A DNA stretch of 64,000 nt from IMG/VR virus record IMGVR_UViG_3300033149_002817, positions 1 through 64,000 of that record. The stretch is one strand, 5' to 3'. The notes beneath the pieces are model-generated. The model worked only from the letters and a program-made list of their open reading frames with translations, was not told the origin of the DNA and did no database searches. Shown here piece by piece: positions 575 to 35,358 of the stretch. The DNA comes from a virus. The translations under genes and the position numbers were made by a program. Position 1 is the first letter of the stretch. Each line of letters starts with the position of its first letter.

Positions 575-3500
575 ATGGTCAACCTCGCGCAGTACCTCGC
601 CGGCAGTGTATCGCTCGAAGAGCTTGAGGAGTCGCTGCCCGTCAGCGGGGCCGGCGGCTTGATGCTGCCGAAGCCGATGACGACGCGGCACGAGAGGCTG
701 CAGCTCGCATGGCAGGATTTCAGCACGAAGCTGGAAGCCCTGTGGCTCGACGTGATGGAGACGTCCGAAGAGCTGTACATCGATGCCGCGCAGACCATCG
801 ACGAGCTGCGCAACGTCGGCTTTCAGAACCCGCGGCACGGGGTGCCAATCTTCAAGCGCTTGCAGCAGAAGGTCGCTGCGTACGCGATGAAGCCGAGCGA
901 AGAGCAGAATGCCATCCAGGTGATTGCCGCACGTCTCGGAGCGCTGAACGCTGAGCTTCTCTACATCTGCGACGAGCACGACCCGCAGATGCCGAAGCCT
1001 CCGGAGCTGCCCGCCCGCGACATGAAGACGTGGCAGAAGGATAGCGGCGTGGAGCGCTTCCCCGGCGAGCTGGGGATGTCTGATCCCGGCATCGAGGGGA
1101 TGGAACCGGAGCCCGACGACGAGGATTTGCCTCAGGATCAGCAGGTTATCTCGGCGGAGCCCGGCGAGGAGCCCGAGGGGGAGATGCCGCCCGAAGGCGA
1201 AGAGGTGCCGGGCGAGGAGCCCGACGAAGACGAGGTGCCCTACGATGCCGCCGAAGAGGAACCACAGGATGCGGAGGGAGAGCTTGCAGGAGAGGATGGA
1301 GAGGATCCGCTGGCTCCTGGGGACGAAGAGGAAGGCGCCCCGGTCGAGCCTGGTATGGAGGATCCTGACGGTGGTGAGGTGGCTCCTGAGGATGGAGAAG
1401 AGGAAGCCCCCGACGTCGAACCCGGCGAAGCACCCGACGAGGTTCCCGGAACAGAGCCCGAGCTTGCGCCTGAGCCCGGAACAGAGCCCGAGCCCGGAGT
1501 AGAGCCCGACGCCGAAGCTCCGCCCGGGGCCGAGCCCGGCGAAGAGGAGCCCGAGGCACCTCCCGAGAAGGCGGCACCGGATGGTGAGGAGCCCGAGGCG
1601 CCTCCTGAGAAGCTGAAGCCGGAGGATGGAGCGCCCGAGCCACCGTCGGGCATGGAGCCCGAGGGGATGGAGCCCGAGGGGATGCCGAAGGAGAAGCCCG
1701 AGGTACCGCCGAAGGAGAAGCCCGAGGTACCGCCGAAGGAGAAGGGCGACGAGAAGGGCGAGAAGCCCGACATAGCTCAGGTCGCGGACAAGGAACGGGG
1801 AGACGCGGACGACGCGAAGCAGGACTTCGCCGACGCGGCAGCGAAGACCGACGACGAGGAAGGGGAAGCAGAGGAGGTCGAGGGCGACCCGAAGGCTTCC
1901 CCGGAGAAGAAGGCGGACGAGAAGGACGACGTCGAGCGCGCGAAGGGTGAGGAGGTCGACGCTGCGGCGGAGGTCGAGGGTGAGGACGACGAAGCCGACT
2001 CGGCGGAGCGGTCGCTCGGGCAACAGCCGCGTGACTGGGACACCGACCGCCTGAAGAAAGCCTACGATCAGGTCAAGTCGGACCTCGGGGGCAAGGTGCC
2101 CGCGGACGAGATGCCGAAAACACCTGAGGAGCTGATCCAGCTCATCGCGCCCGACGACGGCGACGCCGGCATCATGCAGCAGGGAGCCGACGCGGACACG
2201 GGGAAGGTTGACCCGCAGCTCGCGCAGTACCTGCAGCGCGAGATCAAGAAGGGCACGCTTGGGAAGGAGCCCGACGAGGATGAGCAGCTCGGGGCTCCGC
2301 CGTCGAAGCCGAAGTCGAAGATGCCCCCGCCTGGGAAAGACATCAAGGCGGCGATGAAGATCAAGGCGAAGCGCAAGCCGGGTCGCCGGATGGAGGGGGA
2401 GCCGAAGCTCGGGGAGACGGTGAAGGCAGCTGACCCCGCGAAGGTGGATCAGGACGAGCTGGCGATGGGCACGAAGGAGGAGATGGAGCACACGACCGAC
2501 GTGAAGGTCGCGGAGCGCATCGCCTTGGAGCACCTCGCTGAAGACCCGAGCTACTACAGCAAGCTCAAGAAGGCCGGACTTGCGGAGTTCTACCGCTCTC
2601 CCGACTACTTCGGGCCGAAGGCGGAGCAGTACCTCGACGAAGTAGCGCTCGACGAGCGGGGCCTGCCCGGGGCCATGAAGGCAAAGAAGGTGCTCAAGCG
2701 TCTGCTCAAAGCCGGATGGGAGATCATTCGACAGACCGGATCGCACAAGATCCTGAAGAAGGCCACGAAGACCATCATCTTCGCGTTTCATTCAGGCGTC
2801 GAGATCGGCCGCCGGATGCTCGCGAAGCTGCAGAAGCAGACCGGCGTGAAGTTCATGGAGAACTACGCGGCGGTTGACGCTCTGCGCTACGCCATCGTCG
2901 AAGAGCAGGGTGACGTGGAGGCGTCTTTCCAGCTGGCAGCGGAGACGATCGCGGAAGCCGTGCGGCGCTACACTGACGCGAGTGATGTTCGTGGGGAGTT
3001 GGGCGTGGTTGCTCCCGGGCGTCCACCGTCCATCAACGTGTTCGCGGAGTGGCGGAGCAACGGCCGCCCGAGCGACAGCTTCGGCTTCACGCGTGTCATC
3101 CCGATCGAGGGGGCGGTGTACTTCGCGAACGCAGACGGCGTGGTCAGCGAGTCGTGGGATATCGACGAACACATCACGAACACGGAACTCGCGAACCGCG
3201 TATATGGCGCTATGAGCGAGGTTTACGACGTCTGCCCGACGCGCGTGACAGAGGATGAGAGGGTCGTACCGGCGCTCTACCGCGTCATGGAGCGAGAGCA
3301 GCGCGGAGAGAGCATCTCCGGCTACGCCTACGGTGGACTCCTTAACAGCCTTCGTTCGTCGCTGAGCATCGCAGAGGGTGTGGCTACCGCGCCTCAGCGC
3401 ATCCACGTGACGATGGCAGGCCCGCGCCGCTACTACTTCGAGTGGACGGTCCCGGCCCCCAAGAAGATCCCCGCTGTTGTGGGGACACCGGACGGCATGC

Positions 3501-4243
3501 TTGCTGAGATGCAGGACGTGCTTGGCGCTGGAAAGCTGGCGCTCAACGAGGACGCGACGGTCACGCTCGGCGGCGCGAGGGTGGGCCTCCTGAAGCATCG
3601 CCCGATGACGCCGGAGACCGTGCGGCAGGTCGCGATGTTCAAGACGCCGACCCGGGCTCAGTTCGCTGCGGGGAAGCTCGGAAGCGACTGGACTCCGGTT
3701 CACGTCTACGTTGACGACGGGTCGGAGGGCTGGGTCGTCGGCGACAAGCGGAAGGACGCGCTGTCGAAGATCGGAGCCCGGCGTATGGGTGTTGAGGAGG
3801 GGGTCATCGGGCTCTCTGCAATAGGTGGTGCCGCGTCTACGGTGTGGTGCTCACCGCCGATCAGCATCTCTCCGTCAGAGGGCTCCGTGCTGATCGGCGA
3901 CTCCGTGCTCGACAGGGACTGCTCCGATAGGGCGTTTGCCGATATCATCTCGACGCTCTCCGAGCAGCAGGACGACACGGCACACGGCTACCTGTTCGAG
4001 GACGGCCCCACCGTCCAGGTGGATCGCAAGACGCGCCTACGTGTGCAGGAGACGGGTGTGGGCGATGTGCTGGTGTCGCCGCTCGACGAGGACGAGGACG
4101 AGAGGATCCGGGAGGCGAAGGCGGCGAAGCAGAAGCTCGACCCGTACGACGTCATTCGTGCAATCGCGAACATGGAGTTCATCCCGCGTGGGCCGTTTGC
4201 GGTCCTGAGGGTGAAGCGTCACGGGACGGGACAAGGGAAGTAG
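575..4243 (+). CDS. Large modular putative internal head polyprotein: acidic E/P/G-rich region, DUF5661-like domain, HicA-like RNase domain
   Basis: AAGGAG RBS precedes ATG575. Low-complexity E/D/P tract at ~1090-2000. ELAMGTKEEMEHTTD..AERIALEHLAEDPSYYSKL resembles DUF5661. MKAKKVLKRLLKAGWEIIRQTGSHKILKK...FAFHSGVEIGRRMLAKLQKQTG matches the HicA pattern. Confidence 0.8.
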   Translation: MVNLAQYLAGSVSLEELEESLPVSGAGGLMLPKPMTTRHERLQLAWQDFSTKLEALWLDVMETSEELYIDAAQTIDELRNVGFQNPRHGVPIFKRLQQKVAAYAMKPSEEQNAIQVIAARLGALNAELLYICDEHDPQMPKPPELPARDMKTWQKDSGVERFPGELGMSDPGIEGMEPEPDDEDLPQDQQVISAEPGEEPEGEMPPEGEEVPGEEPDEDEVPYDAAEEEPQDAEGELAGEDGEDPLAPGDEEEGAPVEPGMEDPDGGEVAPEDGEEEAPDVEPGEAPDEVPGTEPELAPEPGTEPEPGVEPDAEAPPGAEPGEEEPEAPPEKAAPDGEEPEAPPEKLKPEDGAPEPPSGMEPEGMEPEGMPKEKPEVPPKEKPEVPPKEKGDEKGEKPDIAQVADKERGDADDAKQDFADAAAKTDDEEGEAEEVEGDPKASPEKKADEKDDVERAKGEEVDAAAEVEGEDDEADSAERSLGQQPRDWDTDRLKKAYDQVKSDLGGKVPADEMPKTPEELIQLIAPDDGDAGIMQQGADADTGKVDPQLAQYLQREIKKGTLGKEPDEDEQLGAPPSKPKSKMPPPGKDIKAAMKIKAKRKPGRRMEGEPKLGETVKAADPAKVDQDELAMGTKEEMEHTTDVKVAERIALEHLAEDPSYYSKLKKAGLAEFYRSPDYFGPKAEQYLDEVALDERGLPGAMKAKKVLKRLLKAGWEIIRQTGSHKILKKATKTIIFAFHSGVEIGRRMLAKLQKQTGVKFMENYAAVDALRYAIVEEQGDVEASFQLAAETIAEAVRRYTDASDVRGELGVVAPGRPPSINVFAEWRSNGRPSDSFGFTRVIPIEGAVYFANADGVVSESWDIDEHITNTELANRVYGAMSEVYDVCPTRVTEDERVVPALYRVMEREQRGESISGYAYGGLLNSLRSSLSIAEGVATAPQRIHVTMAGPRRYYFEWTVPAPKKIPAVVGTPDGMLAEMQDVLGAGKLALNEDATVTLGGARVGLLKHRPMTPETVRQVAMFKTPTRAQFAAGKLGSDWTPVHVYVDDGSEGWVVGDKRKDALSKIGARRMGVEEGVIGLSAIGGAASTVWCSPPISISPSEGSVLIGDSVLDRDCSDRAFADIISTLSEQQDDTAHGYLFEDGPTVQVDRKTRLRVQETGVGDVLVSPLDEDEDERIREAKAAKQKLDPYDVIRAIANMEFIPRGPFAVLRVKRHGTGQGK
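1652..1744 (+). repeat. In-frame short tandem repeats (15-bp x2 MEPEG; 24-bp x2.5 PKEKPEVP)
   Basis: atggagcccgagggg occurs twice, then gccgaaggagaagcccgaggtacc twice plus a partial copy. Confidence 0.85.
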
Positions 4244-4613: not shown

Positions 4614-4653
4614 GCCCACATCGCCGATTGCTTGTTTGCTCTCAATTTTCCAC

Positions 4654-4699: not shown

Positions 4700-4719
4700 T
4701 CAACCACGGGGGCAAAACG

Positions 4720-5952: not shown

Positions 5953-5965
5953 GCGACTCGCTCCG

Positions 5966-7654: not shown

Positions 7655-10141
7655 ATGCGACCGGAGCATCTCGACGTCATTCTTGAGCGTGTCGGTGCGG
7701 CGATGCAGGGCAACGCTGTAGCCGAAGCGCAGCAGAGCGTCGATGAGGTAGACAGAGGCTTCGAGTCGTTTGAGGAAGGCACGCGGGCGGAGCAGTTTCG
7801 CTGCAAAGCGCTGTTTTCTGGGGGTGGGTCTGGCTCTGGTAAGGGTTTTGTTCTGGACAACACCGTCCGCGGCCTCGGGCTTCGTATCCTCAACTCCGAT
7901 GACGTCCTTGAGGCGCTTGCGGCAAGCCCGGTCACGCGTGAGCGCTTGCAGAAGAAGCGCGACGCGAAGGGTGCAGAGGGCGACATCACCGGGAAAGGCT
8001 ACGGTCGTCGTGGCGCCGTGATCGACCTCAAGACCGAGCTGATGGGCAAGTTCGTCCAGAAGGAGCTGCGCCCCTACTCGAAGCGTCGGTACAAGAACAA
8101 AGCGCATATGACGATGGACCGCCGCAACGGTCTCGTCTTCGACGTGACCGGTGCCAACCTCGGGACCATCCAGAAGTTCTATAAGGAGCTTACTGAGCGG
8201 GGTTACGACTGCGGGATGATCTTCGTCAGTGTGAAGATTCCGACTGCGCAGACGCGTGACCTCAAGCGTAAGCGTTCGCTCGGCCCGGAAGAGGTCGAGA
8301 AAGTTCACATCAAGGCTAACGCCAACGTCTCGAAGCTGGCTCAGCTGTTCGGTGCGGAGAATTTTCGCATCGTGGTGAACGAGAATGTCAGGGGTACGAA
8401 GCGGCCGACGGCGAAGAAGGACCGCTCCCTTCCCGAGGCAATCCGTAGCGGCGCGACGATGATGCGTGCTGTCAAAGGGCGGAAAGCGCAGCAGCAGGCT
8501 ACGGTCAGCTCCGACCAGTGGACCATCAACCAGCAGCTCATACTGCAGAAGTTCAAGGACGCTCGTAGTTGGGCGACGAAGTGGCTCAAGAGGCCCATCC
8601 GGAACCCCGTCGGCAAGGCGTACCTTGCGAGCCTGAAGGAGGCGGTTGCCGCGGACGCGGGGCTCGTCGAGAAGGCGGAGATGTACGTCGTCTACCGCAA
8701 GGACGGCACCGGCTTCATCTACGAGCAGATGTTCTACGACCAGCTGACTGCTCGGGCGTTCGCACGTCGCATCAAGGGCTCCGTCATCATGGACCCGGCG
8801 AAGGTGCCCGACAGGATCGGCAACCTCTCGCAGCTCGGCGGGAGCGTGGTCGAGGGGGCGGGGGTGCTCAACGAGTGGGGGTATCGGCAGCAGCGTCGCA
8901 CGAAGACCCTCAGCCGTCCGGCCGACGAGATCGCGAAGGCTCTCTCGTTTGAGGCCGCTGTCGTGTTGTTCGGGAGCACGCAGTTCAAGTCTCCCAAGTA
9001 CAAGCTCGCGCAGGAAAGCTTTCGTCTACGCATCTCGAAGGCTGAGTGGGAGAAGGGTCGTAAGGAGCTGACGGGTCACGGCATAGCCAACAAGGCGGGG
9101 AACGTCACCTACAAGCTCGCAACTCCGGTGCGCACCGAGTTGGAGAAGATCGTCGGGGCGCGGACGGACTTCCGGCTTGGGATGGCGCTGACGAAGCACT
9201 ACAACCGCTCGAAGGCGTTCATGGGCGACCCGTGGGATAATGCCGAGAAGCGTCGGTTCGACCTGAGGGACGGTCACTGGTACAGCACCGGCGACTACAA
9301 GCCCCTCCCGGAGGCGGCCGACATCGACGAGCGCGGCTACAAGGCCAACCCGAAGGCATACGCGCAGGCGATGGCGAAGGCCGGAGCGAAGCCTTCCCGT
9401 GTTTGGTTGACCGTCGCAAACCTCGTGCAGTCGGCGGCGAAGAAGATGGGGAACGCTGTTCGCAACATGTCAGACGAGAAGGAGCGTGCCGCGTCGCTCG
9501 GACCCCTGAACACGATTCTGGACCTGACCGATGTTTCTATGGCTACTCAGGCATCGCGCTCGCATCGTGCTGAGACGGTCAAGCAGGTAGCTGCAGCGCG
9601 GGACGCAGCGCAGCGTAGTGGTTCACCGCTCTACTCCGCGCTCAACGACCTCTATCGCAAGATCCGCGCGACGACGTACAACGAGTCGGCCGAAGACCTC
9701 GACGAGTTCTTCTGGCGGAAGCGCGACAAGGGCAAGTTCGCGGCGAAGGGGCAGGGTCAGGAGCCCGCGCCACGCAAGAAGGTACGCTCGAACATCGCCA
9801 GCGACGACTACGCGAAGGCGCTTGCTCAGGCGAAGTCCGACCCGCGCTACAAGGACGAGCTGAAGCACAAGCTCGCGAAGGCGGAGAGCGCGAACGACCG
9901 CACCGGCGTCGAGCTGACGGAGCCGGCGGGACTCGTCAAGCCCGGTCAGGAAGGCGAGTGGAAGCGCGCGAAGGCGGCAGCTTCCCAGCAGTACCCGGGC
10001 ATGGAGGCGAAGGACAAGGACCGCTTCTACGCCGTCACGAACACGATCTTCGGATCGATGACCGGGCGGAGGAAAGAGGAGAGCATGACAGAGCGCACTG
10101 CCAACCTCCTCACCGAGCGGATGACCGGCATCCGGGGGTAG
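7655..10141 (+). CDS. Modular putative internal head polyprotein with N-terminal zeta-toxin-like P-loop kinase
   Basis: KALFSGGGSGSGKGFV (Walker A), ILNSDD, GLVFDVTG and MIFVSVKIPTAQTRDLKRKRSL give the zeta/AAA_33-type kinase pattern. Several basic modules follow, separated by LxE/VxE motifs. Confidence 0.8.
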   Translation: MRPEHLDVILERVGAAMQGNAVAEAQQSVDEVDRGFESFEEGTRAEQFRCKALFSGGGSGSGKGFVLDNTVRGLGLRILNSDDVLEALAASPVTRERLQKKRDAKGAEGDITGKGYGRRGAVIDLKTELMGKFVQKELRPYSKRRYKNKAHMTMDRRNGLVFDVTGANLGTIQKFYKELTERGYDCGMIFVSVKIPTAQTRDLKRKRSLGPEEVEKVHIKANANVSKLAQLFGAENFRIVVNENVRGTKRPTAKKDRSLPEAIRSGATMMRAVKGRKAQQQATVSSDQWTINQQLILQKFKDARSWATKWLKRPIRNPVGKAYLASLKEAVAADAGLVEKAEMYVVYRKDGTGFIYEQMFYDQLTARAFARRIKGSVIMDPAKVPDRIGNLSQLGGSVVEGAGVLNEWGYRQQRRTKTLSRPADEIAKALSFEAAVVLFGSTQFKSPKYKLAQESFRLRISKAEWEKGRKELTGHGIANKAGNVTYKLATPVRTELEKIVGARTDFRLGMALTKHYNRSKAFMGDPWDNAEKRRFDLRDGHWYSTGDYKPLPEAADIDERGYKANPKAYAQAMAKAGAKPSRVWLTVANLVQSAAKKMGNAVRNMSDEKERAASLGPLNTILDLTDVSMATQASRSHRAETVKQVAAARDAAQRSGSPLYSALNDLYRKIRATTYNESAEDLDEFFWRKRDKGKFAAKGQGQEPAPRKKVRSNIASDDYAKALAQAKSDPRYKDELKHKLAKAESANDRTGVELTEPAGLVKPGQEGEWKRAKAAASQQYPGMEAKDKDRFYAVTNTIFGSMTGRRKEESMTERTANLLTERMTGIRG

Positions 10142-10145: not shown

Positions 10146-13100
10146 ATGCCCGAGCTGACCGAACGACAGGAAGTTCTCGACGACGCCGCGATCAAGCGGA
10201 TGCGGAAGGACTACCTGATGCTGATGCGGAACATCGACCGCGTCACGTCTCCGCGGGCGCACGCGGTCCTGAAGAAAGGCGCGAAGACCTTCGCTCAGCA
10301 CCTCGTAGAACTCATCGTCGGTGACTGGTTCGACACGGCCGACGCGCCTATCAAGACGATCCTCCTGAAGCACAACGTCCCGGAGCGGGAAGCGAAGGCG
10401 GTGCAGCAGCTTGCTCAGAAAGCGCTGTACATGCTGGAACACGAGCTGACGATGATCCCGGATTGGCAGGATTGGGGGGAGGCGTCGCGCAAGGGGGCGA
10501 AAGCGTCAGACTCAGTCCGATGGCGGAAGCGGGTCGATAAGCACGCTCGTCAGGTCTGGAAGGACTTGGACTACGTCTCCAAGTACGTCAAGCGCGTCAG
10601 CGGGTCCACGCCGGTCGTCGGGAAGGCAGAGACGAGCTTCGACGTCGCGGGCATCCCGGTTCGCGTCACGGGGACGCTGAAGTACCCGGATGCGTTCCGT
10701 ACGGGGATGAAGGACGCGGTTCAGCGGATCAAGAAGGTACTCCCGTGGGCGATGCGGTACCGCCTCCCGGTACAGATCATCGACATGGACATGAGGGCAG
10801 ACGGCACGTACAACCGTGCAACGAAGCTCATCCGTATGTCGCACTGGTTGCACGAACCGCGCCGCGTGTCTCAGGTGTACGTTCACGAGATGGGGCATCA
10901 CCTCTGGCAGCAGCTCGGGCAGGACGCGAAGGACTACTACCGCGCGGCCGGGAACGCGAACGCGAAGAAGCTGAGCGTCCGCAAGCTGCTCGATGAGTGG
11001 CCCGAGGGCGCTCTCGGTCTGCTCGGGTACGCGAGGCAGCTTGAGAACTCTGATCCCATCCTCTCCGTGCAGCTGCAGTCGATCGAGATGGGTTACGCGT
11101 CGCGCTCTGCGTCGGACAAGACAAGCCTATTGACGCTTCTCGATCGTGGTGTAGAGCACATTACGGTCGACGGGCACCCGGTGACGTACTACGCCGCAAA
11201 GAACTCGGAAGAGAACTTCTGCGAGGTACTCGGGGCGCTCATCTCGTTCGGTCCGCGCACCGTTCACCCGCTCGTCAAGGCGCTCATGAAGCACGTACTC
11301 GGCTCCCGCTTGAAGCTCTCGGAGGCGACGATGGACACAACCGCGCCCACGAAGGCTCCGTGGCATTCCTGCACGGATTGCGACTACGGTATTCCCAAGT
11401 ACGTGGGCCGCTACCCCCAACATTGCCCGAACTGCGGATGCAAGCTCGGGGGCCAGTCGGGCTACCCGAGCATGAAGCGGCGCCTCCCGACGCGCACCGC
11501 GGACCCGGGGCCGGGCATTCCCCTTGAGGAGCGCGCAGCCTTCGAGGCGTGCATGCACGACGTAGCGCGTGGGGTGAGCTTCCCCGGCGTCACTTACACG
11601 CTCACGGAGGGCGGCGTTGCGGCGTTCCGCTACGCGCCCGACCACCTCGCGATCACGCCGACGGTCATCCGCGTCTCGCTCGACGAGGTCAGCATCCCGG
11701 CAGTCGAGGCGGAGGTCATCAAGCTCGCCGAGACGGTCGACACGCTGATGGTTGATAGCGCCATCGATGAGGGCACGCTGTCAGAGAGAAGGCAGGCCGT
11801 ACTGTCGACGAAGCACTTCGACAAGATGCGCACCGAGTGGAAGCGTATGTTGAAGCCACTCTTCACGAAGGGGCGCGGTACGCTTGAGACCGAGGCGGCG
11901 GACTCCGTCTACGCGGGAAAGTTCGAGGAGTTCGTGCGGGCGTCGTTCGAGTTTCTGGCGCACGAAGTTCCGGTTCTCCCTTCGTTGATATGGTGGTACG
12001 AAAAAGCCGACAACATCACGGGGCCGGCGAAGGCGATAGCGGATAAGTTCGCGGGCGCTTACCTGTGGTCCGAGACGTTCTACAAGCGCAAGTCTGTTCG
12101 TCCCGCGGAGGACTACAAGAAGTTCTACGGAGGCAAGGCGGAGAAGTTCCTGGAGATGTTCGTGAAGCTCCGCAGGGCTGTCGAACACTCGGGGTTTACG
12201 CTCGACAGCTGTAGGCTTATGGGAAAGGCTTCGACCCGCAACATCGATCTCGACATCAAGTACAACAACGTCTTTCGTGAGCACCTTTGGAAACTGTGGC
12301 AGGAACGCGACCCGAGCAGCTTCGATAAGAACGTGAAGAACTTCTTCGCCGGCCCGCACGACGAATCTGCACGTGAGCCGATGGCGGAGTACGCGAAGAC
12401 GCTACCTCGCGAGCTGACCGACTTGAAGTACCAGGACGTTGAGACGAGGCACGTAGACCTTGAGCACGCGGGGAAAGCGGTTCTCGCGAAGCTCGACAAG
12501 GTTCTCAAGTTCTTGAAGGGTGGCGTTGCGACTGCGAGCTATCCCGAGTACATGATGAAGCAGATCGCTACGCAGAACCTCGGTCGTGAGAAAGTGCGTG
12601 GTGAGAAGCTTGCGGTAACGGCGGACGTCGTGCGCGGGAACGACAACGTCGCCGGCTTCCGTGTCGAGAACGACATAGGGCTTCCGCGTCACGCTTGGGA
12701 GAGCTTTGCGAAGGTAGTAGCTCTCGTAGCACGTGGGTTGAAGCGTAAGGGTCTCGGCTTCCTCATCAAGCGCGTGGTCGTTCACGTCAAACCAAAAACC
12801 ATGCGCACGTTCACCGTCAAGGATACTGGAGAGAAGAGCCTGTATGGTGGCTCCTACAACCTGTCTCCCGGGTACGACATGTTGGATCTCAAGTATGGAA
12901 TGAGAACAGATCCGAGTTCAAAGCAGAAGCTCAGTAAGAGCACGCCGACGGCGAAGGGCAAGGGCGTCGTCGTCATGAACTACGACACCGCCAGCATACC
13001 GTCTGAGCAGGACGTGGCGCGCATCTTCACACACGAGATCGGGCATCACTACTACTTCGCTTTCCTGCCGCCGAAGGCTCGCGCCGCCTACCGGCACTTC

Positions 13101-16100
13101 TTTGGTTTGGCAACCAGCTTCCCGTCAGCCTACGCGAAGAGCCAGGCGATCGAGGACTTCGCCGAAATCTTCACGGCATGGGTGCTGAAGGGCACTGGGC
13201 TGATGAAGACCGGCGAGTACAAGCCGCTCGACGACGACATGATGCAACGCTTCCGCGGTGCGATTCGTCTCGATCCGGCCGCGAAGGGCGTCAAGCTCGC
13301 CGAAACGGTCGGCACGCTGATGGTGGACGACGTCACCGATGAGGACATGCTGCTCGACCCGCGCACGAAGCTGCCGGTCCCGTCGGCGGAGCCGCTTGCA
13401 GAGAGGGCGGCGCTGTCGACCACGTTCTTCAACAAGGTGCGGACCCTGTGGAAGCAGGAGCTGAAGCCGCTGCTCATGAAGGGGCACGGCACGACGCACA
13501 CCGCGGACGAAGATGACGCGGCGGCATCCGGCTTGAAGTCGTTCTCGGCGACGGCGTTTGCGTTTCTCACGCATGAGGCTCCGATCCTGCCTACGCTTTC
13601 ATGGTGGTACGACGACTACACAAGCAAGGCTGCGCTGACGGCCATCCATGACAAGTTCGCCGGGGAGAACCTGTGGTACACCAAGATGCGTGGCGATGCG
13701 GACAAGTTCTACGCGGATAAGGCGAAGCGCTTCACCGAGCTATTCCAGCAGTTCCGCGAGGCGCTCAACAGCGGGTTGACGCAGCTGCAGTATGCGAAGG
13801 GCTCGACGCGTCCGCAGGTACTCGCTTACTTCGCGAAGCAGGCGATGAGCGACAACGAGCAGCGCAAGAAGGCATGGGCGTTTTGGAAGCGGGCGCATCC
13901 GAAGCGCTTCGCGCGAGAGACTGCCGTCTTGGACGGACCGATGGATGAGACGCAGGATCATCTGTTCATCGACTACATGATCGAGATGTTCAGGGAGCAG
14001 ACACGCTCTGCACTCGACGACTCCGATCGCCGGCACACAGAGCTGAAGACCGCGGGCGACGTCATCCTCAGCTCGATCGACGTGCTCTTCAAGTTCCTGA
14101 AGGACGGCATCGCTACGTCCGGCTATCACACGGGCGCGCAGGCGGAGATCGCGCAGAAGTTCCTGGGCCGGGACGTGAAGAAGGGCGAGAAGCTCGCGGT
14201 TACGAGCGACGTCGTGCGTGGGAACGACAACGTCGCCGGCTTCCGTGTCGAGAACGACGCCGGTTTGGAGAAGTCCACTTGGGAGGGCTTCTCCAAGGTG
14301 TTGGCTCTCATCGCTCGCGGGCTGAAGCGCAGAGGGCTGGGCTTCTTGGTGAAGCGCGCGACCGTGACCGTTCGCCCGCGCAAGGGGAAGACGGTCAACG
14401 TGATGGCGACCGGCGATGACTCGGCTCAGGGGGGCTCCTACAAGTTTGGCGGGCTTGACGCTCCTTCGGCAACGGCTCCTGCGAAGGCGCGGCCGTACCG
14501 TCCGAGCAGCCCGACGACTACGGGGAAGGGCGCCATCTCGCTGTTCGTTGACGAGGTGTACCGGATGCCCGCGCGCGACATAGCGGTCGTCTTCACGCAT
14601 GAGCTTGGGCACCACTACTACTTCGCCTTCCTGCCGCCGAAGTCGCGTGAGGCGTACAAGGTCTTCTTCCAGCGTGCGACGAGCTTCCCGACCGCGTACG
14701 CGAAGAACAACGCAGGCGAGGACTTCGCCGAAATCTTCACAGCGCTGGTGCTGAAGGGCACCGGATTGATGAAGACGGGTCACTACAAGCCGCTCGACAA
14801 CGACATGATGCAGCGCTTTAAGGCTGCCATCGACATGGACCCGAAGGCGAAGAGCGTCAAGCTGGGCGAGTCCTTCGAGGAAAGTCTCTGGGAGCGCGTG
14901 AAGGATTCGCTTGGGATGCCGCGCTCCAAGATGCCGCAGATTCGCTCGGATCTCGTGCCGGAGTTCCTGGAGTTCCTGGGCGGGAACGACGTCAAGGTCA
15001 CGCGCAGGACGATGCCGGCAAACCGTCTCAAGCCGACGCAGAACGAGCTGAACAAGTCGAAGCTCGACTACATGGTGACGAAGGGGGTGAAGCAGCTTCT
15101 CAAGCCGATGATCGTGTCGTCTGACCACTACGTCCTTGACGGACACCATCGGCTTGGCGCTCTGCGGGTGAAGAATCCGAAGGCAGAGGTGCCGGTCATC
15201 GTGGTCGACCTGCACATCATGCGGCTGCTTCAGGTCGCGCACAAGTTCGCGAAGGTCGGGTACAAGAAGCTTAGCGAGGCGATCGGCGGACCGAACCCGG
15301 TTCCGACGGTGAACCCGAAGGCGGACTCGGCGGACGTCCCGGTTGCTCCGACGGACAGCACCGGCGTCGGCTCGTCGTTCAACGCAGCGCTTGGCGTGAA
15401 CGAAGCGGAAGGCATCTTGCAGAGGCTCAAGAGCAAGACGAAGTTCGTGCTCAAGGTGCTCCGGAACGCGAAGATCGGCTTCGCGAGTGTGACGCCGACG
15501 GCTCGCGCCGACAACCCGGCCGACAAACCGCTGCAGCTCAACTTCTTCAGCCCGCAGATGAAGCCGAACCCGATCCCGCACATCTACGTCGCGAACGCGG
15601 CCGACGCTTTCCGTCAGCTGCTCGGGCTGGGCATCCGGGAGCCGCAGCTCGCCGTCCACATGGTGACGGAAGCGGCGACGATGGCGTTCCTTCGTGACGC
15701 GTGGCTGCTGGAGAGCAAGCGTACGAAGTACAAGTCGGCCATCGCGGTCGTCGTGAAGAACCGCGTGAAGGGGCCGGCGGAAGTGCTCATCGGCAAGGCG
15801 TCGGACACCGGAGACGACCGCACCGGTACGTGGTGTCTCCCTGGCGGGGGCATCTCCCCGGACGACGATGACGAGCACGACGCCGCCGCGCGCGAGGCGT
15901 GGGAAGAGATGGGTGTCACGGCAACGCCCACCGGCAAGAGCGTCGAGATGCCGGGGCGGCCGGGCATCATCTTCTGCTACCTCGATTACGTCGAAGGCGA
16001 CCCGAAACCGAACGCGGAGTTCACGGCGGCGAAATGGCTGCCGGTCGCGGACGCGTGGAAGACGAAGGGGCTCTACAGCACGACGGAGCCCCTCATTCAG

Positions 16101-16640
16101 CGCCTCAGCGGCGAGATGAAGGTGACGGAAGCTTTCCCGACACGTAAGAGCAAGCCGGCGAACACGGGCGGCCGGTCGCTCGTCGGCGGGGAGCCGGCTG
16201 CGACGGAAAAGAAGCCCGGCAACAGCTTCGAGACGGACGACAAGAAGGACAACGCCTTCGACCCCGCGGACCGCGACAAGACGGGGACCGTATCGCAGGA
16301 CGACGCGCGTGCGGAGAAGAAGCTCGACATGCCGGATCAGGCGAGCGACGAGCTTGACCCGGCGGAGAGCGACGAGATGCAACAGGACGGACAGCAGCCC
16401 GGCGAGGAAGGACCGCCGCAGCCGGGGCAGCCGGCGACTCCGACCGGGCCGAAGAGCATCATGTTGCGCTTCCCTGACATGTCGATGGCGTCTGACGCTG
16501 ACCAGTGGTTCAAGTCAATGAACGTCGATACGCAGCTTGACGGTATCGAACTCACGGCCACAGCTAAGGATGCGACCGATCTGGAGGTCATTTCTCGTAC
16601 TGCGACAGCGTACGGGTTGGAGCTTTCGGACGCGGCGTAG
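10146..16640 (+). CDS. 2164-aa polyvalent protein: three HEXXH zincin metallopeptidase modules, Zn ribbon, ParB/Srx-like domain, Nudix hydrolase
   Basis: HEMGHH...YAAKNSEENFCE; CTDC...CPNC; HEIGHH...YAKSQAIEDFAE; HELGHH...YAKNNAGEDFAE; LKPTQNE...PMIVSSDHYVLDGHHR; WCLPGGG...AAAREAWEEMG. Confidence 0.88.
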   Translation: MPELTERQEVLDDAAIKRMRKDYLMLMRNIDRVTSPRAHAVLKKGAKTFAQHLVELIVGDWFDTADAPIKTILLKHNVPEREAKAVQQLAQKALYMLEHELTMIPDWQDWGEASRKGAKASDSVRWRKRVDKHARQVWKDLDYVSKYVKRVSGSTPVVGKAETSFDVAGIPVRVTGTLKYPDAFRTGMKDAVQRIKKVLPWAMRYRLPVQIIDMDMRADGTYNRATKLIRMSHWLHEPRRVSQVYVHEMGHHLWQQLGQDAKDYYRAAGNANAKKLSVRKLLDEWPEGALGLLGYARQLENSDPILSVQLQSIEMGYASRSASDKTSLLTLLDRGVEHITVDGHPVTYYAAKNSEENFCEVLGALISFGPRTVHPLVKALMKHVLGSRLKLSEATMDTTAPTKAPWHSCTDCDYGIPKYVGRYPQHCPNCGCKLGGQSGYPSMKRRLPTRTADPGPGIPLEERAAFEACMHDVARGVSFPGVTYTLTEGGVAAFRYAPDHLAITPTVIRVSLDEVSIPAVEAEVIKLAETVDTLMVDSAIDEGTLSERRQAVLSTKHFDKMRTEWKRMLKPLFTKGRGTLETEAADSVYAGKFEEFVRASFEFLAHEVPVLPSLIWWYEKADNITGPAKAIADKFAGAYLWSETFYKRKSVRPAEDYKKFYGGKAEKFLEMFVKLRRAVEHSGFTLDSCRLMGKASTRNIDLDIKYNNVFREHLWKLWQERDPSSFDKNVKNFFAGPHDESAREPMAEYAKTLPRELTDLKYQDVETRHVDLEHAGKAVLAKLDKVLKFLKGGVATASYPEYMMKQIATQNLGREKVRGEKLAVTADVVRGNDNVAGFRVENDIGLPRHAWESFAKVVALVARGLKRKGLGFLIKRVVVHVKPKTMRTFTVKDTGEKSLYGGSYNLSPGYDMLDLKYGMRTDPSSKQKLSKSTPTAKGKGVVVMNYDTASIPSEQDVARIFTHEIGHHYYFAFLPPKARAAYRHFFGLATSFPSAYAKSQAIEDFAEIFTAWVLKGTGLMKTGEYKPLDDDMMQRFRGAIRLDPAAKGVKLAETVGTLMVDDVTDEDMLLDPRTKLPVPSAEPLAERAALSTTFFNKVRTLWKQELKPLLMKGHGTTHTADEDDAAASGLKSFSATAFAFLTHEAPILPTLSWWYDDYTSKAALTAIHDKFAGENLWYTKMRGDADKFYADKAKRFTELFQQFREALNSGLTQLQYAKGSTRPQVLAYFAKQAMSDNEQRKKAWAFWKRAHPKRFARETAVLDGPMDETQDHLFIDYMIEMFREQTRSALDDSDRRHTELKTAGDVILSSIDVLFKFLKDGIATSGYHTGAQAEIAQKFLGRDVKKGEKLAVTSDVVRGNDNVAGFRVENDAGLEKSTWEGFSKVLALIARGLKRRGLGFLVKRATVTVRPRKGKTVNVMATGDDSAQGGSYKFGGLDAPSATAPAKARPYRPSSPTTTGKGAISLFVDEVYRMPARDIAVVFTHELGHHYYFAFLPPKSREAYKVFFQRATSFPTAYAKNNAGEDFAEIFTALVLKGTGLMKTGHYKPLDNDMMQRFKAAIDMDPKAKSVKLGESFEESLWERVKDSLGMPRSKMPQIRSDLVPEFLEFLGGNDVKVTRRTMPANRLKPTQNELNKSKLDYMVTKGVKQLLKPMIVSSDHYVLDGHHRLGALRVKNPKAEVPVIVVDLHIMRLLQVAHKFAKVGYKKLSEAIGGPNPVPTVNPKADSADVPVAPTDSTGVGSSFNAALGVNEAEGILQRLKSKTKFVLKVLRNAKIGFASVTPTARADNPADKPLQLNFFSPQMKPNPIPHIYVANAADAFRQLLGLGIREPQLAVHMVTEAATMAFLRDAWLLESKRTKYKSAIAVVVKNRVKGPAEVLIGKASDTGDDRTGTWCLPGGGISPDDDDEHDAAAREAWEEMGVTATPTGKSVEMPGRPGIIFCYLDYVEGDPKPNAEFTAAKWLPVADAWKTKGLYSTTEPLIQRLSGEMKVTEAFPTRKSKPANTGGRSLVGGEPAATEKKPGNSFETDDKKDNAFDPADRDKTGTVSQDDARAEKKLDMPDQASDELDPAESDEMQQDGQQPGEEGPPQPGQPATPTGPKSIMLRFPDMSMASDADQWFKSMNVDTQLDGIELTATAKDATDLEVISRTATAYGLELSDAA
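11721..14870 (+). repeat. Diverged tandem duplication (~1.57 kb x2) of a zincin module within the 2164-aa gene
   Basis: Units start with KLAETV(D/G)TLMVD at 11721 and 13293. A ~50-bp block (DVVRGNDNVAGFRVEND) is near-identical at ~12624 and ~14208. Both end KPLD.DMMQRF...D.P.AK.VKL.E. Confidence 0.9.
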
Positions 16641-28222: not shown

Positions 28223-28674
28223 TCGGCCGACGCGCGGCACGACCGGCGACTGCGTTCATCGACCCGAAGGCGAAGAGCCAAGGTCGCCGACCGCATCAGA
28301 GGCATGAAGGGGTGTATCTTTTCAAGCGTGCTGCGCACGACACGACCATCGACATGTACGAGCCTCCGACGGCGGACGGCTTTGTCGAGAGCTACGTGCT
28401 GGAGCACTTCGACGCGGAGCTGCTTCTGGCGATCGTGCTCAAGCTGACAGAGCAAGAGATCATCGACTTGATGGACCGCTTGTACAACTTCCGCGCGGTC
28501 ACGTTCAACACGCGGACACGGGCTATCGTCGTGCGACGTGACACGTGGGCGCGGCCCCACAACGAGGACTTGCTCGCTCTGCCTCCGGTTGACGTGTCGG
28601 AGCGTCTCGATCGGTCGCTTACCGGACTTGTGAGTCACATGCAGGCGCTCGCGCCACAGAAGGAGACAGCGTGA
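28219..28674 (+). CDS. Hypothetical protein upstream of prohead protease
   Basis: Translationally coupled on both sides. Confidence 0.6.
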   Translation: MIGRRAARPATAFIDPKAKSQGRRPHQRHEGVYLFKRAAHDTTIDMYEPPTADGFVESYVLEHFDAELLLAIVLKLTEQEIIDLMDRLYNFRAVTFNTRTRAIVVRRDTWARPHNEDLLALPPVDVSERLDRSLTGLVSHMQALAPQKETA

Positions 28675-31298
28675 TGCAGGTGCTCGACGGTCGCAACCTC
28701 TACGAGAACGGGACGAGCCTCGGGCTGCTTCAGCTCGAAGAGGGTCAGCGCTCCAACAAGATGATCATCATCGAGCGCTTCTCGGGCGAGTGGTGCGATC
28801 TCAAGCAGGTCGAGCTGACGGAGATGGACCGGACGAACGCGTCGCAGCTCTTCGAGGCCGGCGGAAACAAGGCCCCTCGCATCCTCATGGCGATGGAGGG
28901 GCGTTTTCAGGCGTCGGACATGAAGAACGCGAACGGGCGGATCTACCCCGGGACCATCTGGGAGAAGATCATTCCGAACGCCGGCACGTCGCCGGTACTC
29001 GGCCGCATCGCTCGCGGGGAGATGCTCGGCGAGGTCGATCACCCCGGCGACGGGCAGACGCTGCTCAAGCGCGTCGGGTGCATGACGACGAACATCCTGC
29101 GCGAAGGCAGCGACGTCCGCGGGCGGATGATCGTGTTCGACACCGCGGTCGGCCGGGATGTGAAGGCCATCGTTGAGGGCGGCGGACGTGTTGGCGTCAG
29201 CTCGCGGGGACAGGGGAGCGTCGTCCGGCTCGAAGGTACGGACGTCGTGCAGGACGATTACCAGCTCGAAACGTGGGATGTCGTCCACAATCCGAGCACG
29301 CCGGGAGCCTACCCGGACATCACGATACAGGAGAGCGCGGCGCCGTCGCAGCCGCAACAGGAGGAGCGGATGGGCATGCTGGCGGACCTCCGGGAGCGGT
29401 TCGAGAGGCTGAAGAAGCATATCGAGGGGCCGGATGCTGACCTCACGGAGAGCGTCTTCACGATCCTCAACGACGAAGCGAAGGGGATGGCGACGGAGCT
29501 GACGGAGGGCAAGTTCGGGGGCTCGCCCGCGGAGGTCGCCGCCATCGCTGCCGACGTGCAGTATTTCCTCAACCGCATCGGGCAGCTGCGCGCGAACCCG
29601 ATCAAGGGCATCCCGCTCGGCGAGGAGGACGACCCGCTGCCGACGGCCGCCGCGACGGGCGGAACGGTGCAGCTCGCGGAGAGAGACTACAAGGGCGACC
29701 CGAAGGCGTACGCGAAGGCGATGGGAAAGGCGCAGAAGAGGGCGGGCATCAAGACGCTGAGCACCGACGTGAGCACCGGGCCATTCTCGGACGCTCGGTC
29801 GAACGCTATTTGGGACGCGCGGATGGAACTGGAGGATGTGCTTGGTCTATGGCACCCGATCACGAAGAAACTCAGGGTGATCTACGACGCCTTGAAGATG
29901 CAAGGCGGTTCGTCCTCGAAGAAGGAAAAGGCGCTGAAGGATTTGGCGCGACTCCGTGATAGTGCACAGCGTGCTGATGGCGACGAGGGTAAGGTTTACT
30001 CTGCTCTCCGTGATGCCTACCGCCGGGCTCGCGCGTCGATGTACAACGAGGCTCGCATGGGGGCTCACGCGGGGCAGAACGAGCCGGGGCGGGACTGGGA
30101 TGACGCAGGTGACGTCGAGGACGTCCGCGCCCGCTTCAAGGGCAAGCCGAAGCGTACGCCCGGTCGCCACAAGGCGGACAAGGCGCTCGTGAAGGGCGCA
30201 GCGAAGCAGCTTGCTCGGTACAACGAGAACGACGACGACGATGACGATACGGAAGAGGAGTGCAACGAGACTTTCCAGCGTGCAACGACCGCGGGTGAGA
30301 CGGTCGAGGTTCTGGAGAACGTCGCCGGCCTGCGCGAGAAGGCGCTGACCGTGCCGATGACCCGCTTCGTTCATGAGGCGCGCAAGGCGTACCGGGACGC
30401 GGCGCAGGTCGATGGCATGATCCATCGGCACGAGCTGGACGGCATCTCTTCCTTCGTGCGGGACACCTACGAAGCGGTCGAGAAGGACGAGATCACGGAG
30501 ACGATGGAGACGCCCGCCGGACGGCGGCGCTTGGAGATCATCGTTCCCAACGCGGGCAAGCTCGACGAGAACACGAAGCAGCTGGTGGCCCCCATCGGCG
30601 GACTCACGCAGACGGCGCCGGGCCGCTACCACACCTCGGTGCCCATCGACAAGGTCAGCGACGTGCTGGAGAGCCTTGCGCGTGGGGGCATGTCTCTCGT
30701 GTACACCGAGTCGACCGAGGCTTTCGACGACGCGGCGGAGCGCTTTCAGCCGCTGCTCGACAGGCAGATGAGCCTCACGCAGGCAGCGCTCACCGAAGCA
30801 GCGACGGGTAAGGCGTGGGTCACGGAGATGTCCGCGATCATCGCCAACGTGAAGCAGGCGATGCAGATGCTCACGGAGAAGGCTCGCGAGCGCGGTGCGG
30901 CGCTGCAGGAGACGGAGAAGAAGGTCAGCGCAGCTACGGCTCTCATCGAAGCGTTCGCTCGTGAGTTCGGCGTTGAGCGGGTTCGCGGTGCGGTGCAGGC
31001 GGTCGCTCAGCTTCATCCGAGCGCCAACGCGCTGCCGGAGAAGCTCTCGGAGGCCCGTAGCGTCGAGGACTGTGTCAGGCTGACACGTGGGGAGGTGTAC
31101 CTGGAGAACCTGCCCATCGTCGAGCGGAACGAGACGCGCATCACGGAAGCGGTGCAGACGTCTCAGCGCGCGAGACAGAAGCGCATCGAGGAGAGCGCGA
31201 AGAAGCCCGGAGCGGGCAGCTTCAAGCGCAGCATCGTCGAGACGACCGAGCAGGTTGTCGGAGCGATGGACAAGAAGTACGGCCGGAAGGATCGGTAA
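28671..31298 (+). CDS. Prohead core protease (T4 gp21-like) fused to a long cargo/scaffold-like C-terminal extension
   Basis: FQASDMKNANGRIYP, LGEVDHP, VGVSSRGQGS, VQDDYQLETWDVVHNPSTPGAY are gp21-type protease motifs. ~650 further residues are helical and E-rich; immediately upstream of the capsid gene. Confidence 0.92.
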   Translation: MMQVLDGRNLYENGTSLGLLQLEEGQRSNKMIIIERFSGEWCDLKQVELTEMDRTNASQLFEAGGNKAPRILMAMEGRFQASDMKNANGRIYPGTIWEKIIPNAGTSPVLGRIARGEMLGEVDHPGDGQTLLKRVGCMTTNILREGSDVRGRMIVFDTAVGRDVKAIVEGGGRVGVSSRGQGSVVRLEGTDVVQDDYQLETWDVVHNPSTPGAYPDITIQESAAPSQPQQEERMGMLADLRERFERLKKHIEGPDADLTESVFTILNDEAKGMATELTEGKFGGSPAEVAAIAADVQYFLNRIGQLRANPIKGIPLGEEDDPLPTAAATGGTVQLAERDYKGDPKAYAKAMGKAQKRAGIKTLSTDVSTGPFSDARSNAIWDARMELEDVLGLWHPITKKLRVIYDALKMQGGSSSKKEKALKDLARLRDSAQRADGDEGKVYSALRDAYRRARASMYNEARMGAHAGQNEPGRDWDDAGDVEDVRARFKGKPKRTPGRHKADKALVKGAAKQLARYNENDDDDDDTEEECNETFQRATTAGETVEVLENVAGLREKALTVPMTRFVHEARKAYRDAAQVDGMIHRHELDGISSFVRDTYEAVEKDEITETMETPAGRRRLEIIVPNAGKLDENTKQLVAPIGGLTQTAPGRYHTSVPIDKVSDVLESLARGGMSLVYTESTEAFDDAAERFQPLLDRQMSLTQAALTEAATGKAWVTEMSAIIANVKQAMQMLTEKARERGAALQETEKKVSAATALIEAFAREFGVERVRGAVQAVAQLHPSANALPEKLSEARSVEDCVRLTRGEVYLENLPIVERNETRITEAVQTSQRARQKRIEESAKKPGAGSFKRSIVETTEQVVGAMDKKYGRKDR

Positions 31299-31343: not shown

Positions 31344-32735
31344 ATGGGTGACAACCCGTACGCCACGATGGAGGACGTCGTTGCGAAGGGGGAGATGCTT
31401 GCCGAGAGCAAGTGGGCTCCGCTCGTCAAGGGGCTCGAAGGGCTCGACAAGGCGCACACGGCGGTGCTGCTGGAGAACACCGCGAGGTGGGTCAACAGCA
31501 TCGACGAGACCACGCGCGCTGTCAACGTGGGCAACTTCGACCGCTTCGCCTTCCCGCTCGTCCGCGCCGTCGTCCCGAGTCTCGTCTCGCAGGATCTCGT
31601 CAGCGTCCAGCCGATGGACGGACCTGTCGGGCTCATCTTCTACTTCGACCTGATCTACGGGTCCAACAAGGGCCGCATCCGCGCCGGCACCCCCGTCTTC
31701 AGCTCGCTGACGGGACACCCCGGTGACGATTTCTACAGCTCGCCGCGGATCGAGGAGGAGGCCATTGCCACGGGCAACGGCGCCACCGCGAACTACACCG
31801 GCACGCTCGACTACACCCCGTGTGTCCCCGGAACGCTGCAGATCACTGACGGCGCGCTCAGTGCGCAGGACGACGGTCAGGGCAACCTGATCGGCGACAT
31901 CGTCGCTGGCGGCGTGAACACCGTCAACTACAGCACGGGCGCCTTCGATGTCACCTTCTCGGCGAACATCGCGGCCAACAACCCGATCGTCGCGAACTAC
32001 GAGTACGACAACGAAGCGAACAGCCAGGTTCCCGAGATCGACTTCCAGCTGACGTCGGCCCCGGTCGTCGCCAAGATTTTCAAGCTCCGCACCCGCTACA
32101 GCCTGGAGGCTGCTCAGAACCTCCGCGCGCTGCACGGGCTCTCCGCGGAGACCGAGCTGGTCGTCGCGCTCGCGCAGGATCTCCGCTTCGAGATCGACCG
32201 TACCATCATCAAGGAAGTCAACCAGTTCGCGCAGGCCACCTCGGTCAGCTGGCCCCTCACCCCGTCGGCGGGCGTGTCGTGGACGGAGCACAAGCTCAGC
32301 TTCGTCGACAAGCTCATCGAGGGCTCGAACAACGTGTTCGAGCTGACGCGGCGCGGCAACCCGAACTGGTGCGTGGTCGGGCTCAAGGTCTCCAACGTCA
32401 TCGAGAGCCTCCCCGGCTTCAAGCCCTCGGGCGCGATGTCGAACCCGGTCGGCGTCATCTACGCGGGTGACCTCAACGGCCGGTGGAGGATCTACAAGGA
32501 TCCGTACAACATCGACGGCACCGCGACGCAGCGCAACTTCCTCATCGGCTACAAGGGCTCGACGTTCCTGGAGGCCGGCTTCGTGTACGCGCCCTACATC
32601 CCGTTCTACACGACGCCGACCGTCATCCTCGACGACTTCCTCGCGAGGAAGGGCATGGCGACGCAGTGGGCGCGCCGGAAGGTCAACGGGCGCTTCTACT
32701 GCCGCGGCACCGTCTCCGGCAACTTCGCCCCGTAG
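31344..32735 (+). CDS. Major capsid protein (T4 gp23-like)
   Basis: KW..L..GL...TAVLLEN, FPLVRAV.PSL...DLVSVQPMDGPVGLIFY, EAAQNLRALHG, EIDRTII, GYKGSTFLEAGFVYAPYIP, RKGMATQWA. Confidence 0.97.
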   Translation: MGDNPYATMEDVVAKGEMLAESKWAPLVKGLEGLDKAHTAVLLENTARWVNSIDETTRAVNVGNFDRFAFPLVRAVVPSLVSQDLVSVQPMDGPVGLIFYFDLIYGSNKGRIRAGTPVFSSLTGHPGDDFYSSPRIEEEAIATGNGATANYTGTLDYTPCVPGTLQITDGALSAQDDGQGNLIGDIVAGGVNTVNYSTGAFDVTFSANIAANNPIVANYEYDNEANSQVPEIDFQLTSAPVVAKIFKLRTRYSLEAAQNLRALHGLSAETELVVALAQDLRFEIDRTIIKEVNQFAQATSVSWPLTPSAGVSWTEHKLSFVDKLIEGSNNVFELTRRGNPNWCVVGLKVSNVIESLPGFKPSGAMSNPVGVIYAGDLNGRWRIYKDPYNIDGTATQRNFLIGYKGSTFLEAGFVYAPYIPFYTTPTVILDDFLARKGMATQWARRKVNGRFYCRGTVSGNFAP

Positions 32736-33992: not shown

Positions 33993-33998
33993 GAGCTT

Positions 33999-34292
33999 GT
34001 GATGAGCGTCGCCAAAGACTACGAAATGTACCTTCAGGGTAAGGATGGCGACCGTCCGATGAAGGAGTCAACATCCGTGGAGAGCGCGCCCGACCGGCAG
34101 GTTCAGCTCGCAGAAGCACTCGTCGAGCATTTCACGCATTTCGACGAGGCGCGCAAGCCGAAGCCGAAGAAGAAGAAGCCGTTCGCGAAGTGCATGGAGT
34201 GCGGTCGCGGCTTTGCGTCTGTGCGGGCGGCGGAGCGGGCGATGTCTGTAGGTTGTCCGGGCTGCGGTGGGTCTGACATCGACATGGCGTAG
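33999..34292 (+). CDS. Small Zn-ribbon protein sharing a leader motif with the upstream gene
   Basis: PDRQVQLAEALVEHFTHFDE then KPKPKKKKPFAKCMECG...CPGCGGSDID. Confidence 0.7.
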   Translation: MMSVAKDYEMYLQGKDGDRPMKESTSVESAPDRQVQLAEALVEHFTHFDEARKPKPKKKKPFAKCMECGRGFASVRAAERAMSVGCPGCGGSDIDMA

Positions 34293-35095: not shown

Positions 35096-35358
35096 TGCCG
35101 TTCGTCCCGGTCGAGAGGCTCGTGGAGAAGAAGGCGAGCTATCGCGCGGTCGTTCGCGGACGCGGGGATGGGTTGCAGTCCGCGGACGTGTTCAAGGGTG
35201 ACGTCATTCACGACGGTACGCACGGCTCGCAGGGGGCCGTGCAGGCATGGCTGCTGCGCCACTACCCGAGCGTTGACGTCGAGGATCACTCTCGCTTCGC
35301 GTCGCCCGAGGTTGACGACGATGACGACGGGGAGATGGTCGAGGAGGGATTGGCGTAG
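35095..35358 (+). CDS. Small hypothetical protein (LxE leader)
   Basis: TGATG overlap; MPFVPVERLVE-KK. Confidence 0.55.
   Translation: MPFVPVERLVEKKASYRAVVRGRGDGLQSADVFKGDVIHDGTHGSQGAVQAWLLRHYPSVDVEDHSRFASPEVDDDDDGEMVEEGLA

Follow-up and report, generated by a model that had tools for sequence, protein, structure and literature searches.

The window analysed here covers the opening 64 kb of a virus record from IMG/VR (IMGVR_UViG_3300033149_002817; 95.6 kb, about 63% G+C and an estimated 44% complete), and the system in question consists of three giant genes at its start, p1222, p828 and p2164, together with a prohead protease of the T4 gp21 type. The convincing genes of the record all lie on the + strand. 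The giant genes span 575-16640, their products together string about twenty enzyme-like modules, and the protease is encoded 12-28 kb downstream of them, with tail-fibre-like and unknown genes in between. An original prediction, made from the letters of the window, held that the recognisable domains are bracketed by hydrophobic-x-Glu motifs ([LIVMFY]xE, here PhixE) at which this protease would cut polyproteins into separate effectors. Sites are written below up to the Glu after which the cut is presumed (a slash marks the cut where the following residues are given), and all 24 that had been listed lie where they were said to be: KLGE614, GLAE671, ALDE694 and KFME762 in p1222; SFEE41, SLKE329, GLVE339, SVVE400, VLNE407, PLPE553, DIDE559, TYNE677, DLDE684 and ELTE756 in p828; and ELTE6, KLSE393, TLSE547, KLAE1053, PLAE1086, KLGE1575, SLWE1583, KLSE1711, WLLE1856 and KVTE1995 in p2164. 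In the following list, L002 is a metagenomic relative (contig Ga0180437_10000708; the sole close relative compared) and P0057 is a distant protein of the polyvalent class, to which we return below.

575..4243, + strand: p1222, polyvalent protein 1, with an N-terminal domain, a hyper-acidic region, DUF5661, HicA and a 460-aa C-terminal part (Pfam)
1079..2014, + strand: hyper-acidic Pro/Glu-rich region, p1222 aa 169-480, net charge -99
2417..2587, + strand: DUF5661 module, aa 615-671, between KLGE614 and GLAE671 (Pfam 3.2e-9)
2657..2860, + strand: HicA module, aa 695-762, pI 11.6, between ALDE694 and KFME762 (Pfam 1.4e-11)
7655..10141, + strand: p828, polyvalent protein 2, with a leader, a zeta-like kinase, five small basic modules and acidic spacers of 6-10 aa
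7778..8641, + strand: Zeta-toxin/AAA_33-like P-loop kinase module, aa 42-329 (Pfam Zeta_toxin 5.8e-6, AAA_33 1.1e-4)
8855..9685, + strand: two modules with spacers, p828 aa 401-677, without counterpart in the L002 orthologue r602
9332..9685, + strand: helical module of about 118 aa, p828 aa 560-677, with a paralogue inside the protease-scaffold protein (34% identity by blastp, E 4.8e-11)
10146..16640, + strand: p2164, polyvalent protein 3
10164..11324, + strand: zincin module 1, aa 7-393, with HEMGH, between the leader MPELTE6 and KLSE393 (phrog_87)
11325..11732, + strand: Zn-ribbon module, p2164 aa 394-529, with C-terminal KLAE529, common to P0057 (E 7e-9)
11733..13304, + strand: zincin module 2 with a 17-aa acidic spacer, p2164 aa 530-1053, a repeat at 46.8% identity and an extra tandem copy relative to L002
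13305..14870, + strand: zincin module 3, p2164 aa 1054-1575, with C-terminal KLGE1575
14895..15278, + strand: ParB-like module, p2164 aa 1584-1711, between SLWE1583 and KLSE1711 (weak: ParBc_2 E=0.011; phrog_2859 4.8e-25)
15714..16130, + strand: Nudix module, p2164 aa 1857-1995, between WLLE1856 and KVTE1995 (Pfam NUDIX 3.1e-15)
16131..16637, + strand: acidic low-complexity tail and C-terminal domain (about 64 aa) of p2164, kept in L002

The domain assignments of the prediction stand by Pfam, phrog or motif for HicA, DUF5661, the kinase, Nudix, the three HExxH zincins and the S77 protease; that of the ParB-like module is weak. HicA (PF07927) scores 44.7 bits against a cut-off of 27 and covers profile positions 2-58 of 58; a search for the HicB antitoxin (HicB_lk_antitox) in the 95.6-kb, roughly 44%-complete record found no match. 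The zincin calls rest on HExxH, on an EDFAE motif that is invariant across 32 homologues and on phrog_87, with a sub-threshold match to Peptidase_Mx1 and weak Foldseek matches to Mx1, PPEP and lethal-factor zincins; the Pfam MPTase-PolyVal model did not match the zincin modules. The ParB-like region gives tblastn matches to giant virion proteins of F116/H66-type phages. Pfam searches with the individual modules that carry no assignment gave nothing significant. Many of the enclosed modules had been described as K/R-rich, and the modules are indeed basic (pI 9-11.6); where sites are doubled, the short spacer that separates them is acidic, with a pI of about 4.1 and hardly any Lys or Arg. Elsewhere in the chains, the acidic region of p1222 is 312 aa of Pro/Glu/Gly-rich sequence, with a similar region carrying small indels in L002; it could be a putative charge offset for basic cargo in the prohead or a putative DNA mimic. 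The C-terminal domain of p2164 (about 64 aa; 16446-16637) follows a long acidic Pro/Gln-rich tail and is nearly invariant in L002; it is a possible docking domain. By eye this domain resembled the C-terminus of P0057, a resemblance that BLAST did not confirm, and an ESM Atlas search with it gave no lead.

The protease and the capsid protein are encoded side by side:

28671..31298, + strand: S77 prohead protease of the T4 gp21 type, aa ~1-230, continuing into a scaffold-like part of 645 aa, 875 aa in all (Pfam 8.2e-17, phrog_207 4.1e-37)
29682..30053, + strand: second copy of the p828 module, aa 338-461 of the protease-scaffold protein, flanked by QLAE337 and MYNE461
31344..32735, + strand: T4 gp23-type major capsid protein (phrog_138 1.4e-59; aligns with gp23 structures)

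That the window encodes a gp21-type protease is borne out by its Peptidase_S77 scores, 61.8 bits for the window protein and 65.5 bits when the genome was searched, where 27 is the cut-off. The protein aligns with the T4 gp21 structure 5JBL and keeps the His (VDHPG) and Ser (VSSRG) motifs, whose His and Ser we take to be the catalytic residues of gp21; in this alignment VDHPG lies opposite a residue of T4 gp21 that the crystallised chain has as Ala, and VASRG stands opposite VSSRG. The protease-scaffold protein is loaded with [LI]xE, with 28 occurrences against 9.3 expected (z=+7.1), and the excess disappears when the spacing is changed, the motif is reversed or Asp replaces Glu. Such a load is what would be expected of a gp21/gp22-like self-degrading core. 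A milder excess occurs in p828 (z=+2.7) and none in tail proteins. The protease-scaffold gene lies immediately upstream of the capsid gene, and the same layout is found in Listeria phage LIS04 (a 559-aa protease gene, then the capsid gene), which with Bacillus phage SP-15 is the closest cultured relative of the capsid protein (38-40% identity). The capsid protein carries three PhixE (E21, E43 and E55) in its first 55 residues, before the conserved core; its residue 70 aligns with residue 31 of mature gp23*. Because IDE55/TT aligns with LLE/TT of the LIS04 capsid protein, it is the likeliest candidate for the maturation site. In T4, gp21 cleaves after L/I-x-E, with Glu at P1 and L or I at P3 (PMC9026906). 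The load in the scaffold and the conserved PhixE at the propeptide border of the capsid protein therefore make a T4-like L/I-x-E specificity plausible for this protease. One helical module of about 120 aa occurs twice, in p828 (aa 560-677) and in the protease-scaffold protein (aa 338-461), and Glu sites flank each copy.

Comparison with L002 shows how the modules behave over evolutionary time. The L002 orthologues of p1222, p828 and p2164 (1672, 602 and 1768 aa) are 64-72% identical to the window proteins, and the first of them, r1672, supports the predicted start of p1222. Four indels of module scale separate the two sets, and each of the four has a PhixE at either end; the joint chance of this phasing is 4e-13 to 1e-9, according to how strictly the ends must coincide. 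One is a 464-aa insert in the L002 orthologue of p1222, between IGE and LTE and exactly at the site upstream of DUF5661, that contains a type IB topoisomerase core (Pfam Topoisom_I 1.6e-13). Another is a stretch of 277 aa, made up of two modules, that the p828 of the window has and its L002 orthologue lacks; it is bounded by the site pairs VVE, LNE and YNE, LDE. A third is a 119-aa module found only in L002, which begins exactly after the VTE of the Nudix module and ends in KLSE, and the last is the 524-aa tandem zincin copy in the p2164 of the window, between KLAE and KLAE. Smaller indels (12-28 aa) fall in low-complexity or intramodule regions and are unphased. The prediction had modules gained or swapped between Glu linkers, and what the comparison reveals is gain, loss and duplication exactly there, in every one of the four cases. 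The modules are thus discrete units bounded by PhixE linkers and turned over at those linkers. The sites named by the prediction are also better kept than the rest: 18 of the 19 that can be aligned are conserved in L002, against 42 of 62 other PhixE (Fisher p=0.014), and both borders of zincin module 1 (MPELTE6 and KLSE393) are among the elements kept. The modules specific to L002, the topoisomerase IB module included, have no counterpart anywhere else in the 95.6 kb of the window phage, and those specific to the window were not found elsewhere in L002. The extra L002 module (L002:2006-3394) combines a poly-Gln tract with the topoisomerase IB catalytic core, and may be a putative packaged topoisomerase.

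The case rests on where PhixE occurs and not on how often. Enrichment of the motif in linkers had been proposed as a check; the overall count is not raised in p1222 (30 observed against 37 expected from shuffling) or p2164 (43 against 36) and is modestly raised in p828 (21 against 14), but the placement is non-random, as judged by indels, conservation and the edges of Pfam domains. From the edge of a Pfam envelope to the nearest outward PhixE the distance is 0-10 aa (combined p=0.002). An AlphaFold model of zincin module 2 (32 homologues, pLDDT 79.6) has the 17-aa spacer from KLAE529 to TLSE547 disordered, the fold beginning directly past TLSE547, and the KLAE at the far end carried on a terminal coil. 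The model of whole p828 (from a 2-sequence alignment) has a low pLDDT of 41 and says little about where modules begin or end; its sole confident part is aa 560-677, and confidence falls past YNE677.

More distant relatives redeploy the same modules in other orders, with Glu sites at module ends. The zincin module occurs both as stand-alone proteins (about 523-542 aa) and within other large proteins, and in 30 of 44 zincin homologues a PhixE follows 30-61 residues after EDFAE (background 47%, p=0.004). Two relatives were found through DUF5661: P0059 combines Zeta_toxin, DUF5661 and ART-PolyVal, and P0057 combines DUF5661, SprT and NUDIX, having the Zn-ribbon, DUF5661 and Nudix in common with this phage in a different order and ending its Nudix module in LRE/A. 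Polyvalent proteins are giant phage proteins with many unrelated enzymatic domains (zincin, ParB-like, kinase and Nudix among them), for which packaging, injection along with the DNA and proteolytic processing have been predicted (Iyer et al., 2017; PMC5512222). Each of the three proteins here has at least two disparate activities in one polypeptide (HicA and DUF5661; the kinase and others; zincins, a ParB-like module and Nudix), and homology to recognised members runs through P0059 and P0057, the MPTase-PolyVal model being without a match. On domain content and these relatives, the three proteins therefore fall in the published polyvalent class (PMC5512222). In the account of Iyer, Burroughs, Anand, de Souza and Aravind, processing is mainly by the proteins' own zincin domains and no cleavage motif is defined (PMC5512222), whereas the joints here carry a Glu-ending motif that fits the S77 protease of the phage, and modules turn over at those joints.

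On balance, we lean modestly towards the view that p1222, p828 and p2164 are polyvalent proteins built as polyproteins, with sites for the T4-type prohead protease as their joints. The domain content, the intact protease, the positions of the motif and the module turnover at linkers are read directly from the DNA; from them we infer packaging, cleavage by the S77 enzyme and injection. The giant proteins would be made late and co-assembled into the prohead interior, possibly aided by short N-terminal leaders ending in PhixE and by the module common to the protease-scaffold protein. The S77 protease would then cut after Glu at exposed PhixE linkers, often twice, freeing acidic spacer peptides of 4-33 aa. 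The outcome would be some twenty separate basic proteins in the capsid (a HicA RNase, a zeta-like kinase, zincins, ParB-like and Nudix proteins and others), ejected together with the DNA. Because each module would bear its own cut sites, the duplication, insertion or loss of one at the linkers would leave the adjoining modules intact.

Parts of this scheme have precedents. T4 internal proteins carry N-terminal capsid-targeting sequences that end in a gp21 site (PMC9026906), and the present system resembles T4 IPI-III and Alt, which gp21 (MEROPS S77) processes, in its homologous protease and, as proposed, in the L/I-x-E rule, in basic cargo that would enter the prohead core and be ejected with the DNA, and in putative short leaders ending in a site. 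The putative leaders MPELTE and MRPEHLDVILE and the N-terminal LEELEE, all at predicted starts, are kept in L002 and have no similarity to the T4 targeting sequences. T4 cargo differs in that it comes from separate small genes with one leader each; here three genes hold about twenty modules, and their sites are internal and in many cases paired. In phiKZ, 201phi2-1 and SPN3US (gp175/gp245), a diverged gp21 homologue likewise cuts many internal head proteins after x-x-E (PMC10052503, PMC9026906), the cleavage rule reported for the phiKZ and SPN3US enzymes (PMC10052503), and long propeptides in these phages are cut several times (PMC10052503, PMC9026906). There, however, N-terminal propeptides are removed from single mature proteins at A/S/G-x-E, whereas the cuts proposed here part modules at hydrophobic-x-E, and the capsid protein is of T4/SP-15 and not phiKZ type. 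Polyproteins of eukaryotic RNA viruses are alike in that several proteins in one chain are separated at sites for a virus-encoded protease (here, as proposed); they differ in that the protease in this phage is unrelated and separately encoded, and its products would be capsid cargo and not replication or structural proteins.

Several observations pull the other way from cleavage at module joints. The total number of PhixE is unenriched in p1222 and p2164, and many PhixE sit within folded domains, even in the catalytic motifs HExxH and EDFAE; cutting, if it occurs, must therefore be gated by accessibility. One of the L002 junctions is AVE, which is not a PhixE, and the p828 module shared with the protease is missing from the L002 orthologue of p828. 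The giant genes do not adjoin head genes, and the T4-type portal family was searched for in the 95.6-kb record and not found. The 'head-region' label of the original prediction is accordingly loose, because tail-fibre-like and unknown genes set the giant genes apart from the protease. The proteases of T4, phiKZ and SPN3US mostly trim N-terminal propeptides and do not cut joints between functional domains (PMC10052503), and some polyvalent proteins, the N4 virion RNA polymerase for example, are packaged uncut (PMC5512222). The phage is moreover uncultured and known here from sequence alone.

Some of these points can be turned into a different account, in which the three are ordinary multidomain polyvalent proteins that act uncut and PhixE reflects helix capping or acidic linker composition at joints where recombination is tolerated. 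LxE is frequent in helical proteins, and the unenriched totals of p1222 and p2164 are what this account would lead one to expect. The habit of known prohead proteases of removing mostly N-terminal propeptides (PMC10052503) also suits it, as does the N4 polymerase. Generic linkers, however, give no reason for one and the same three-residue motif to recur at both ends of each module-scale indel, and the account leaves unexplained both the doubled sites that bound short acidic peptides and the match to the motif concentrated in the scaffold-protease protein; we consider it unlikely, though the most serious of the alternatives. Rather less probable is that the proteins are packaged and injected but processed by their own three zincins, in the capsid or after injection, with the Glu linkers as zincin sites. 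Self-processing by metallopeptidases is already a published hypothesis (PMC5512222), p2164 bears three zincins with HExxH and EDFAE, and the PhixE that follows EDFAE at the module end (30 of 44 homologues) could be an autoprocessing site. Yet p1222 and p828 lack a zincin module, this zincin family has no known cleavage specificity, Glu at P1 with L or I at P3 is the documented S77 rule (PMC9026906), and the same motif is borne by the capsid protein and, very strongly, by the protease-scaffold protein, which are S77 substrates by homology.

A location outside the virion is the most doubtful of the three alternatives, if only by a little. Here the giant proteins would work inside the cell in host takeover or against defences, and their genes would simply share a strand with the structural ones; the surroundings lend this some colour: a thymidine kinase gene lies upstream, a gene with sigma-70 region 4 lies between p1222 and p828, a gap of 12 kb separates the giant genes from the head genes, and the record yielded no portal. 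Against it stand the module held in common with the protease-scaffold protein, the homology of the ParB-like part to giant virion proteins of F116/H66-type phages, a domain repertoire characteristic of polyvalent proteins, for which injection is predicted (PMC5512222), and a linker motif that fits the processing sites of head proteins.

If the linkers are cut as the prohead-protease reading proposes, the locus would show how large phages load and diversify injected enzymes for host takeover and anti-defence: one protease rule and short linkers would make any domain capsid cargo, and whole-module differences between relatives would be explained. Polyvalent proteins, gp21 specificity and capsid-targeting sequences are all known already; the set of papers searched contained none describing prohead-protease sites as the module borders of polyvalent proteins. 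Whether T4-type prohead proteases are more generally a release system for evolvable cargo cassettes flanked by hydrophobic-x-Glu linkers seems to us an evenly balanced proposition. If it is true, any module with such flanks could be joined into a polyprotein, enter the capsid, be released there and be injected; one phage would then supply twenty or more separate effectors, and entire modules, a topoisomerase IB or an extra zincin for instance, would set close relatives apart. Polyvalent proteins, whose processing was so far only hypothesised, would gain a concrete and testable cleavage motif, and the arrangement points to a natural model for loading several foreign proteins into a phage capsid, which would take the approach based on T4 capsid-targeting sequences further.

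A megablast of the head region against cultured phages gave no match, an IMG/VR search with the capsid protein gave no relative, and one with the p2164 alignment gave only a Nudix match, in a 408-kb contig. Around the giant genes, the following gene lies directly upstream of p1222:

1-543: thymidine kinase gene, truncated by the contig start (phrog_592 1.9e-28)

Between p1222 and p828, a 225-aa protein (6274-6951) has a sigma-70 region 4 domain (Pfam 2.3e-6), and its neighbour, a phrog_2319 gene (4720-5952), is kept in L002. Downstream of the capsid gene come adaptor, tail sheath and baseplate hub genes. The 384-aa protein directly after the capsid gene and the 97-aa protein that follows it (32838-34292) have in common a segment of about 70 aa (40% identity, E 1.5e-5), which contains a site ending in QLAE. 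Between the head-tail adaptor and tail sheath genes, a 1517-aa protein (41526-46079) has both Kelch repeats and a zinc carboxypeptidase domain of the M14 family (7.6e-17). Four paralogous genes stand in tandem at 47223-50330 and encode proteins of about 255-265 aa; two are 79% identical, and the fourth is alike only over its N-terminal ~90-125 aa. A 1024-aa protein just past the window (record positions 63927-67001) has short segments in common with the tail sheath (52606-54879; 39.5% over 124 aa) and with a 370-aa protein at 26708-27820.

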